Shown here: positions 37,560 through 39,953 of the stretch, piece after piece
How the letters are laid out: each line of letters begins with the position of its first letter
Numbering within the stretch: the first letter of the stretch is position 1
DNA from: Escherichia phage AV125
Length of the DNA stretch: 64,000 bases
Sequence record: OR352955.1
Strand: one strand, 5' to 3'
Notes under the pieces: model-generated
What the model saw: only the letters and a program-made list of their open reading frames with translations
Databases searched by the model: none
Told to the model about the DNA's origin: nothing
Position numbers and translations under genes: made by a program

Positions 37560-37561
37560 GA

Positions 37562-37590
37562 AAAGGAGCCAAATGGCTCCTTTCTTTTAT
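37562..37590. terminator. Bidirectional terminator at the convergent junction
   Basis: 9-bp stem AAAGGAGCC / GGCTCCTTT with loop AAAT, flanked by A-rich sequence upstream and T-rich downstream; between the end of the plus-strand fiber gene and the end of the minus-strand HNH gene. Confidence 0.6.
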
Positions 37591-38018
37591 TCAGCGTTCA
37601 ACCCTTCACCATGTTCTTGATGCCAAGCCTCATGGTGTAGAGGGCACAGCCATAGAACATCTAACGGTTTATCATAATCACAATGATGAGCATGAACATC
37701 AACAGACCCACACACTTGGCAAGGTTGTTTTACTAACTTTCCATCTCGGAGTGCGTTACCAACTAAAACGTGAACACTACGCTTCTTGGGATTCTTTTCT
37801 TGCCAACGTTTTTTAGCCGCGTCCGCTTTATCCTTTCCTTTTCCTTTTACATACTTTTCTTTTGCTGCTTTACGATTAGGGTCTTGATCTCGTATACGGT
37901 CACGTTCTTTTAAGCAAGCTTTACAGGACGCCGTATAGCCATCTTTAGAAGCCTTCCTTACTTGGAACATGTTGAGAGGCTTTTCAGCCCCACAACACGA
38001 GCATAACTTACTGATCAA
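37587..38018 (-). CDS. HNH homing endonuclease (free-standing)
   Basis: C-terminal HNH motif HAHHCDYDKPLDVLWLCPLHHEAWH; N-terminal Cys cluster CSCCG...SCKAC. Confidence 0.6.
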   Translation of the reverse strand: MISKLCSCCGAEKPLNMFQVRKASKDGYTASCKACLKERDRIRDQDPNRKAAKEKYVKGKGKDKADAAKKRWQEKNPKKRSVHVLVGNALRDGKLVKQPCQVCGSVDVHAHHCDYDKPLDVLWLCPLHHEAWHQEHGEGLNAE

Positions 38019-38902
38019 AAAGGAATATCTTCGTCGAAGTCCATTGGAGGTTCTTCTTGATTACTTGGAGTTGGTTCTGGTTGTGGTTCAGGTTTCTTAA
38101 CTTCTTTCTTCTCTTCTTTCTTAGGCTGTTCTGCGGAACCACGAATGGCAGCAGCAACTTTATCAGACAGAGCCAGAACTTTACGAGCAGAATCAATCAG
38201 ATCTTCTACAGAGACAGTCTTGATGGTATGGTCTTTACAAGCATTGAGAATAGCGTGACCAACAGATGCCCCAAGATCATAATCATTAATATCAACGCCA
38301 CGAGATTCAGCAATTTCAGATTTCAGCGTGACAGTTGCAGATTGAACAACCCCAGCGATATCGAAAGCATCGCCTTTAACACCATTACGAATCAGTTCCA
38401 GTGCACCATTTACTGCGTGACCAGTTTCCAGACCTACAGTATCACGTTTTTTATAGGACTGCTTAGGAGCAGCATCGTTGGAACCTTTATTGCCAGAAGA
38501 TTTGTTAGACTTCTGAACACCATCGGTAGACAATACTGTAATACGAGATTTTTTAGTATTGTAGTAAGTTTTACCGCCTTTATTATCAACGCGATCAATA
38601 TCAATACTTACTTCTACACCTTTTTCAATAGTGATCCAATTATCACCTTCTTTGACTTGCAGGTTTTCATAACCTTCTTTCAGTTCAATGTCACCAAGAG
38701 AAATCCAAACACCTTTCTCATCTGGTTTAGCACCTTTCTCTTTCAGAACAAGAGAAGCTCGGTGAGTTGAAACAATCGTTTTTCCTTCCCAATGGAAGGT
38801 TTTAGGTTCAGCGAATTTATCCAGTTTAACGTAGTCTACGATACCAGTTGCATAAGTTACGGTTTTGCCTTTACGATCAGTTTCAGTATTAATTACGGAC
38901 AT
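38015..38902 (-). CDS. ssb: Single-stranded DNA-binding protein with E. coli SSB-like acidic C-terminal tip
   Basis: 295 aa; Pro/Glu/Lys-rich linker then terminal PMDFDEDIPF, closely resembling the bacterial SSB tip DFDDDIPF; located in the replication module. Confidence 0.5.
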   Translation of the reverse strand: MSVINTETDRKGKTVTYATGIVDYVKLDKFAEPKTFHWEGKTIVSTHRASLVLKEKGAKPDEKGVWISLGDIELKEGYENLQVKEGDNWITIEKGVEVSIDIDRVDNKGGKTYYNTKKSRITVLSTDGVQKSNKSSGNKGSNDAAPKQSYKKRDTVGLETGHAVNGALELIRNGVKGDAFDIAGVVQSATVTLKSEIAESRGVDINDYDLGASVGHAILNACKDHTIKTVSVEDLIDSARKVLALSDKVAAAIRGSAEQPKKEEKKEVKKPEPQPEPTPSNQEEPPMDFDEDIPF

Positions 38903-38918
38903 TATTATCTCCTCTACA

Positions 38919-39311
38919 TTACATTAATTTTGCACAGAAAGAGCGGAGTCTTTCCATATCATCTTGCTCTAACAGGTATTTACCTTTACCTATTCCAACC
39001 CCAATTTCACCATTAGGAAAATGAACTATTTGCACTGGGAAACCTCCGAGTTTAATTGTGGCAGCTTTGCCTTCTTCGTCTATAACGTTTCGGATTGTAT
39101 CTTGCAGTGAAATGAATTCTTTGTTTGTAACAGTGGTTTCAATTATTTCAGATGTTTCAACACGAGCAGTTAGCTTCTTGTTTCCACCTTGAATAACCAA
39201 AATTTGAAAATAAAAAGAGTTGTCAAGACCTACAACATTTTTCTCAACTAGTGTCAAACTGGTATAGTTTCCATAAACAGTTTCAACAGCTATCTTAGAA
39301 CGTTCAGTCAT
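38919..39311 (-). CDS. Hypothetical protein
   Basis: 130-aa ORF with consistent strand and spacing; no motif recognised. Confidence 0.3.
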   Translation of the reverse strand: MTERSKIAVETVYGNYTSLTLVEKNVVGLDNSFYFQILVIQGGNKKLTARVETSEIIETTVTNKEFISLQDTIRNVIDEEGKAATIKLGGFPVQIVHFPNGEIGVGIGKGKYLLEQDDMERLRSFCAKLM

Positions 39312-39356
39312 TGAATGCTATCCTATCATAAAATGTTTAATATTGTCAAGCTTTAA

Positions 39357-39953
39357 TTACCAAGGAATATCATCTTCTTCTTCCGATTTGGTATCTACTT
39401 GAGGTGGACGTGGAACCTTAACCTCTTTAACAAAGCGAAGATATGGGAAACGCGTAGCGATTTTAATAACATGTTTGGCATCTTCTCTAACATCTTTGTG
39501 CAAGAAGCAGATCCCTGTTTCCAAAGTTGTTTCAAAATCTTTAGAGTAATAACAATCCTTTCCATCAAATGCAGCCTGGCAGATGGACAGATCAAACTCA
39601 TTCAGAAAGGTTGTCATTACATTTGGGTCCATAATCATAAGGTTGCAAAGCTGACCATCACGTTCAAATTCAAAAACGTGTTTAAGACCAGTAACACCCT
39701 CGTAGTTATCAGAAGCCTCTTTGTTTCCTAGTTTACGAATATTAGTTCCCATCAAAGCAGATGCAATCAAGTCTTGTATTTGCTCTTCTGATCGATGTGC
39801 AGGAAGAGACGTGTAAAAATCCAGATCACGTCCGGCAATATCAAGAATACGCCAATCACGAACAGCACCGCCAGCCAAGACAGAATTAGGATCAGCGATC
39901 TTTAATACGGTAAGAATTTCTTTGGCAATATTGATTTGTTTTGATTTAGTCAT
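39357..39953 (-). CDS. Pol-beta superfamily nucleotidyltransferase (CCA-adding/poly(A) polymerase head-like) with SSB-like C-terminal tip
   Basis: Motif LAGGAVRDWRILDIAGRDLDF matches the GGAVRD...D.D head-domain signature of class II CCA-adding enzymes; C-terminus ...SEEEDDIPW mimics the SSB tip. Confidence 0.45.
   Translation of the reverse strand: MTKSKQINIAKEILTVLKIADPNSVLAGGAVRDWRILDIAGRDLDFYTSLPAHRSEEQIQDLIASALMGTNIRKLGNKEASDNYEGVTGLKHVFEFERDGQLCNLMIMDPNVMTTFLNEFDLSICQAAFDGKDCYYSKDFETTLETGICFLHKDVREDAKHVIKIATRFPYLRFVKEVKVPRPPQVDTKSEEEDDIPW

Follow-up and report, generated by a model that had tools for sequence, protein, structure and literature searches.

A putative single-stranded DNA-binding protein of Escherichia phage AV125 that ends in a close match to the E. 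coli SSB tip

SSB tips serve as the hub that leads bacterial replication and repair proteins, more than a dozen of them, to single-stranded DNA (ssDNA). A phage gene whose product ends almost exactly as E. coli SSB does raises the question of whether that product is an ssDNA-binding protein in its own right, and which proteins its tip would address. We analysed such a gene in a 64,000-nucleotide stretch of Escherichia phage AV125 (OR352955.1; hereafter, the window), whose DNA in this region is 95-97% identical to that of E. coli Phapecoctavirus phages (nepoznato, ESCO5, Mt1B1_P17 and others). An open reading frame check returned the gene exactly as it had first been delimited, with 295 codons. 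The gene and the parts of its product, here called the SSB-like protein, are:

38015..38902, minus strand: complete gene of the SSB-like protein (295 aa, phrog_4477), with an ATG start and its stop codon at 38015-38017
38909..38914, minus strand: ribosome-binding site GAGGAG, 6 nt before the ATG, read from the sequence
38519..38902, minus strand: predicted OB-fold beta domain, the putative ssDNA-binding part (residues 1-128)
38447..38518, minus strand: basic interdomain linker, low confidence (residues 129-152)
38138..38446, minus strand: four-helix domain, the most conserved part of the family (residues 153-255)
38054..38137, minus strand: K/E/P-rich intrinsically disordered linker (residues 256-283), from composition and a pLDDT below 50 at residues 260-285
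38018..38053, minus strand: acidic tip EPPMDFDEDIPF (residues 284-295), 11/12 identical to the E. coli SSB C-terminus

The SSB-like protein has the same sequence as WPK37834.1 of phage AV125 and is present on 48 contigs; GenBank records give the gene one of two names, 'hypothetical protein' or 'single-stranded DNA-binding protein'.

The SSB-like protein ends in ...NQEEPPMDFDEDIPF. When its last 12 residues, EPPMDFDEDIPF, were aligned with those of E. coli K-12 SSB, EPPMDFDDDIPF, 11 of the 12 were identical and the remaining one was a conservative D-to-E change, which bears out the near-copy of the host tip reported in the initial annotation. The blastp alignment of the whole protein with E. 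coli SSB was confined to residues 270-295 (5e-7), and blastp detected no sequence similarity between the OB region and E. coli SSB. At the DNA level, 31 of the 45 tail nucleotides are identical to E. coli ssb, and the third bases of identical residues with degenerate codons agree at 2 of 10 synonymous positions. Since the third bases agree at so few of these positions, the identity of the tip is kept by selection at the peptide level; the same two counts exclude a recent copy of host ssb DNA as the source of the tail.

The tip is not peculiar to this phage. The SSB-like protein matched phrog_4477, a PHROG family with no assigned function, at 1.1e-96, and a profile search of 1.84 billion cluster representatives retrieved 276 clusters at E <= 1e-3. 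Among the 150 representatives listed, 106 of the 145 newly retrieved ones have a C-terminus in which [ILVMCT]-P-[FWY] comes after an acidic run, and the endings of the remainder are mostly close variants (xAPF, xSPF, LDF, IPFN). The match of the tip is not a chance one, because an acidic xP[FWY] ending occurs in most of the family. The majority-rule consensus of a 40-sequence family alignment ends in EPPMDFDDDIPF, the exact E. coli sequence, and an Ile/Val/Leu-Pro-Phe ending is kept in members down to 27% identity. Judged from these alignments, the tip is an old, conserved trait of the family.

As a canonical bacterial SSB, the protein was rejected by sequence. The Pfam scan assigned no family, PF00436 included, to it or to any of the 40 aligned relatives; the PHROG families named SSB matched residues 247-295 only, that is, the tail; and the family profile, compared with PDB sequences, matched E. 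coli-type SSBs over the last ~23 positions only. Several Dictyostelium myosin-2 motor-domain constructs in the PDB also matched the profile, at the last 20 residues only; these constructs apparently bear an SSB-tip-like C-terminal tag, which accounts for the odd PDB matches and is irrelevant to the phage.

We then modelled the protein with AlphaFold2, using 40 homologues as input. The model (mean pLDDT 78) comprises a beta domain (residues 1-125, pLDDT 80-90), a basic linker (residues 131-149, low confidence), a four-helix domain (residues 156-253, pLDDT ~90) and a disordered stretch (residues 260-285, pLDDT < 50) followed by the tip. The OB fold on which the initial assignment depended is thus predicted at the N-terminus. 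Nearly all structural neighbours of this predicted fold are ssDNA binders; the matches are moderate in score and consistent in kind, suggesting an OB domain of the ssDNA-binding type. The domain bears family-conserved aromatic (Y17, W89, Y113, Y114) and basic (K29, K41, K84, K111) residues and is near neutral overall (pI 6.7), and the tail is acidic (pI 4.4). In the four-helix domain, D154, G157, G161, H162, A163, T190, G215 and A221 are invariant, D154 being in one of the twelve invariant columns of the 40-sequence alignment, and the family motifs D-x2-G-x3-GHA and GASVGHA are both present. Assignment of this domain to a known fold was rejected, as it returned generic helical matches only (a designed repeat protein, ECF sigma region 2); it is putatively an oligomerisation or partner surface. 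Set beside the features of the bacterial SSB family (PF00436), the protein has a predicted N-terminal OB fold, a disordered linker and a D-D-D-I-P-F-type tip, and lacks a sequence match to the OB profile. The initial designation as a phage SSB consequently holds for fold and genomic context, but not for membership of the bacterial SSB family.

A relative of this protein has been studied genetically. Bas52_0087 (QXV84166.1) of the Vequintavirus Escherichia phage RudolfGeigy was described in an April 2026 preprint as a trigger of DRT10/UG17, and mutants of this BASEL phage (Bas52) that escape the DRT10/UG17 reverse-transcriptase defence carry Bas52_0087 D252V and Y351C (bioRxiv 10.64898/2026.04.29.721553). 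Using Phold and AlphaFold2, the authors described Bas52_0087 as an SSB-like protein that has two OB folds and, in its disordered C-terminus, FDDDIPF. They raised a possible interface with host ssDNA-processing factors such as SbcB/ExoI, linked the DRT10 phenotype to host ExoI dosage and ExoI-controlled cDNA levels, and reported that Bas52_0087 expressed alone was non-toxic and insufficient to trigger DRT10 (bioRxiv 10.64898/2026.04.29.721553). Our literature search found no biochemical work on any member of the Bas52_0087/phrog_4477 family.

Bas52_0087 (MZ501102 75981-77207) lies downstream of the Bas52 DNA polymerase gene and shares 405 of 408 residues with bas55_0086, to which the SSB-like protein aligned by blastp over the OB domain (8e-13) and over the helical domain plus tail (2e-15). 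The SSB-like protein and Bas52_0087 belong to the profile family around phrog_4477 and have in common homologous OB and helical domains, a disordered tail (ending FDDDIPF in Bas52_0087) and a site downstream of a DNA polymerase gene. They differ in phage group (Stephanstirmvirinae for the SSB-like protein, Vequintavirus for Bas52_0087) and in length (295 versus 408 aa): where the SSB-like protein has residues 129-152, the long Vequintavirus homologues have a Q-rich linker and a second small beta domain (~residues 140-245 of Bas52_0087), both absent here. In keeping with this, our AlphaFold2 model contains one beta domain, not the two OB folds described for Bas52_0087. By sequence homology, the SSB-like protein is a short-form member of the Bas52_0087/phrog_4477 family. 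In the MAFFT alignment, the escape site D252 corresponds to D154 (codon 38441..38443, minus strand) and Y351 to A250, where the last helix ends. The D154-D252 correspondence predicts that DRT10 could sense this phage, and that the phage could escape. The host-like tip itself is largely known already, as it was noted for Bas52_0087 in the preprint; what goes beyond the descriptions we found is that a nucleotidyltransferase bears the tip as well and that there is a widespread capped-tip module, both described below.

The surroundings of the gene are those of a replication operon. In ESCO5, the minus-strand operon runs from glycosyltransferases through primase/helicase, adenine methyltransferase, DNA polymerase I, three small genes, the nucleotidyltransferase and a 130-aa gene to the SSB-like gene, which is the last and converges on a tail gene. 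The neighbouring features in the window are:

39357..39953, minus strand: stand-alone class-II nucleotidyltransferase of the CCA-adding/poly(A)-polymerase type (198 aa), with GGAVRDW...DLDFY motifs and the ending EEEDDIPW
39320..39349, minus strand: promoter-like site (TTGACA, 18 nt, TG-TAGGAT) between the nucleotidyltransferase and 130-aa genes, a consensus match only
38919..39311, minus strand: gene of a 130-aa protein (phrog_16560, no assigned function) between the nucleotidyltransferase and the SSB-like gene
37587..38018, minus strand: HNH homing-endonuclease gene (phrog_2340, 3e-40), directly after the SSB-like gene
37561..37584, no strand: bidirectional terminator-like hairpin that ends both the minus-strand replication operon and the tail gene converging with it

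The last two operon genes may have their own promoter at 39320..39349, a site identified by consensus match in a region where the count of promoter-like sites equals the shuffle expectation. The 130-aa protein, which gave no match in Pfam or the PDB, is a possible partner of the SSB-like protein; three related loci (L008, L009, L012) have a gene of 130-135 aa at this position, with C-terminal residues that are alike by eye only. A tblastn search with E. coli SSB of the window and the rest of the nepoznato genome returned no match other than this tail. Because the gene closes an operon with primase/helicase and DNA polymerase I genes, and because tblastn found no E. coli-type SSB elsewhere, the SSB-like protein is best read as a working SSB.

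The nucleotidyltransferase, two genes upstream of the SSB-like gene, carries the second tip. The initial annotation had coupled the SSB-like tip with a nucleotidyltransferase tail, and the open reading frame at 39357..39953 (minus strand) does end in EEEDDIPW, so that both proteins have I-P-aromatic at their very end. The DDIPW ending recurs in 10 of 12 homologues (58-96% identity), and a further one ends in DSFPW; two homologues at 31-33% identity lack the DDIPW tail. The protein has the GGxVRD and DxD motifs of class-II enzymes and a predicted pol-beta-like head fold; its model (pLDDT 78.5, tail disordered) resembles several known enzymes. Its score against Pfam PolyA_pol (PF01743), 15.2 bits, is below the gathering cutoff of 23, and the best PF01743 E-value among 13 members of the alignment is 0.0011. 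A scan for D-D-I-P-[FW] endings took in every ORF from 50 aa upwards in the window and from 40 aa upwards in the other ~87 kb of the 97%-identical nepoznato genome, and found them on the SSB-like protein and the nucleotidyltransferase only. A tip on further proteins of the phage, including the primase/helicase, was accordingly rejected for the window and the remainder of the nepoznato genome.

The identification of the nucleotidyltransferase as the anti-Gabija protein Gad2 was also rejected: two homologues have precomputed matches described as 'faint', and neither the Pfam scans nor PADLOC gave any. In more distant relatives, a SIR2-domain protein or a nucleotidyltransferase whose Gad2 Pfam match is faint occupies the slot two genes upstream (L012 1270-2082, L009 1440-2015), both without the DDIPW tail. 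This slot seems to hold variable accessory enzymes.

What would such a tip do? The SSB-Ct pockets of ExoI, RecQ, chi and PriA hold the terminal Phe side chain and its free carboxylate beside a basic residue, and E. coli cannot do without the Pro of IPF, as known from the ssb-113 allele. The SSB-Ct pocket of DnaG likewise reads Pro-Phe and the terminal carboxylate (PMC5872125). We consider it probable that the SSB-like gene encodes the phage's own ssDNA-binding protein with a functional SSB-Ct-type tip. The N-terminal OB fold would bind ssDNA, the four-helix domain would hold the subunits together, and the disordered K/E/P linker would present the acidic C-terminal tip, which would reproduce the E. 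coli SSB-Ct ligand in its acidic residues, its Ile-Pro and its terminal Phe, whose carboxylate is free. Docked in SSB-Ct pockets, the tip would allow phage-coated ssDNA to recruit or compete for proteins that read this code: host exonuclease I, RecQ, PriA or the chi subunit, and possibly replisome proteins of the phage. The DDIPW end of the nucleotidyltransferase would be a variant ligand delivered to the same docking sites. In this scheme, we infer ssDNA binding, oligomerisation and all protein-protein contacts of the SSB-like protein. The engagement of the host SSB interactome proposed in the initial annotation is plausible from the sequence, and the same idea has already been proposed for Bas52_0087 and ExoI/SbcB. 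The proposed architecture is that of E. coli SSB, with a predicted OB fold, a disordered linker and an acidic tip; unlike E. coli SSB, the phage protein has an extra four-helix domain and a K/E/P-rich rather than G/Q/P-rich linker, and the similarity between the two is confined to the tail.

The tip may instead serve the phage's own replisome, as in T7, its likeness to the host's then being due to shared ancestry or to a tail module taken over from a canonical SSB; we hold this to be possible, though not the expected outcome. The same operon encodes a Pol A-type polymerase and a primase/helicase, and among related Mydovirus phages the primase/helicase itself ends in ...DPDDDTPF plus an APIGLQY extension, the same pattern of one tail on several replisome proteins. 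T7 gp2.5 is similarly a phage-specific OB-fold SSB with an acidic tail and a terminal aromatic docking ligand (predicted in our case), and the gp2.5 tail binds T7 polymerase and helicase/primase. T7 gp4 has a similar tail. Reuse of the ligand near replication genes is thus a further likeness to T7, on the nucleotidyltransferase here and on the primase/helicase in Mydovirus. The HK620 SSB, a divergent phage SSB, requires its last six residues (NDYPPF, similar to DDDIPF) for partner contact and for stimulating the phage's own Sak4 (PMC5928155). Its demonstrated partner is this phage annealase, and its tip is far less host-like than the one described here (PMC5928155). Against a T7-style role, the match to the host extends over a 12-residue stretch that includes PPM upstream of the core hexapeptide, which is beyond a generic acidic-aromatic tail; T7 and T4 manage with tails unlike the host's; and the primase/helicase of this phage lacks such a tail. 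The T7-style use is nonetheless a serious rival that is equally compatible with the data, and it and the host-partner reading are not mutually exclusive.

A tip can sit on a protein other than an SSB, as it does on the nucleotidyltransferase, and this would also suit a decoy or anti-host factor, whose host-type tips sequester or misdirect ExoI, RecQ and RecJ away from phage DNA while the OB and helical domains serve another purpose. The link between Bas52_0087 and ExoI-controlled cDNA levels fits such a role, whereas the non-toxicity of Bas52_0087 on overexpression does not (bioRxiv 10.64898/2026.04.29.721553). The position in the replication operon, the strong ribosome-binding site, the OB fold and the lack of any other SSB in the genome favour a working SSB, and we regard a decoy as unlikely.

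The free end of the tip is not universal among relatives. In 15 of 103 relatives from the first search, 14-17 residues follow IPF; examples of these capped ends are APIGLQYGRNFLHCF, SPLGLQYPNHSMYALYA and APIGLQYRELLYAM, and a capped tail reads DFDDDIPFAPIGLQYGRNFLHCF. The composite end consists of DDD[IV]PF, then APIGLQY, then 7-9 mostly hydrophobic residues, often with a penultimate Cys (...PALLNCM). One capped relative, P0001, is 99% identical to the SSB-like protein of the window. The allele in the window is uncapped, and so is the majority among the members listed for its 90% cluster. Capped ends were seen in L008 4001-4933 (a 99% identical relative), in L015 667-1887 (BIS47_17) and in IMG/VR loci L016-L058. 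They occur on three unrelated scaffolds: the SSB-like family; canonical E. coli-type SSBs, such as the 187-aa protein of Vibrio phage K290 (L014 1018-1581), which ends in DFDDDIPFAPIGLQYPAIVHCM; and the primase/helicase of Mydovirus AV124 (L013 518-2581).

A degenerate DNA pattern for PFAPIGLQY was found on 43 IMG/VR contigs, always 7-9 codons before a stop. The matched ORFs include 27 with an OB domain 32-85% identical to E. coli SSB, 4 of the SSB-like family and 3 that are 691-aa primase/helicases. In 185,579 bacterial and archaeal species (one genome each), the pattern was rare, occurring at only 9 sites, 7 of which are SSB paralogues with the composite tail, all but one gamma-proteobacterial. 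A 28-aa query of tip plus extension was covered to at least 80% in 215 GenBank phage records, and full-text string searches of the literature for an APIGLQY-type motif returned nothing relevant. The codons of A-P-[IVL]-G-L-Q-Y differ synonymously among loci, which shows that the capped end is under selection at the peptide level.

The extension would bury the Phe carboxylate and should therefore block host-type docking or make a different ligand. The initial annotation had seen a deliberate use of the tip code in the two tails; the DDIPW ending in 10 of 12 homologues and the tip on the primase/helicase of related phages speak for this view, which the capped alleles with their 14-17 extra residues complicate. 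We tentatively suggest, as a conjecture more doubtful than our main reading, that the SSB tip is a portable phage docking code placed on unrelated scaffolds in free or capped form, that the capped form is either a second, phage-specific ligand or a masked host tip, and that allelic switching within a genus changes the partners.

Capped alleles retain the acidic stretch and lose the free end, as would be acceptable if the tail acted in cis, bending back onto the OB domain and so adjusting the affinity and cooperativity of ssDNA binding, with IPF docking no partner. T7 gp2.5 is one case of an acidic tail that regulates DNA binding. The acidic tail of E. coli SSB is described as regulating DNA binding too (PMC5928155). 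Such auto-regulation needs charge, not the strict Ile/Val/Leu-Pro-Phe ending that distant family members keep, and we consider a cis role highly improbable. Purely cis-regulatory and pure decoy roles are both less likely than the host-docking and T7-style readings.

The HNH gene lies immediately beyond the tip: its TTG start overlaps the TGA stop of the SSB-like gene, and ESCO5 lacks it. Related HNH genes occur at the same spot in L008, L009 and L011 (33-69% identical over most of their length) and in L012 (the N-terminal ~40 residues only), and in Bas51 (bas51_0090) and L054 the gene next to the 3' end of the homologue encodes an apparently different endonuclease (only weak N-terminal similarity, E ~0.01-0.02). 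The 3' end of the SSB-like gene looks like a recurrent homing site. An origin of the extension as a by-product of the HNH cassette read in the SSB frame was rejected: in L009 and L012, stops interrupt the stretch when it is read in the HNH frames; in L011, where stops close both remaining frames, the HNH gene is situated past the stop codon of the SSB frame; the codons of the extension differ synonymously in the SSB frame; and the extension is present without an HNH gene in Klebsiella phage BIS47, the Justusliebigvirus-like loci L058 and L034, and Vibrio phage K290.

For our favoured reading, an ssDNA-binding protein of the phage with a functional SSB-Ct-type tip, the meaning for infection is that an unrelated body bearing the host tip could redirect or compete for the SSB network. 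That DRT10 senses relatives of the SSB-like protein makes the family relevant to phage-host conflict. The main gain for the window is one of annotation: a gene often labelled 'hypothetical' becomes that of an SSB-like replication protein, a short form of the Bas52_0087 family.
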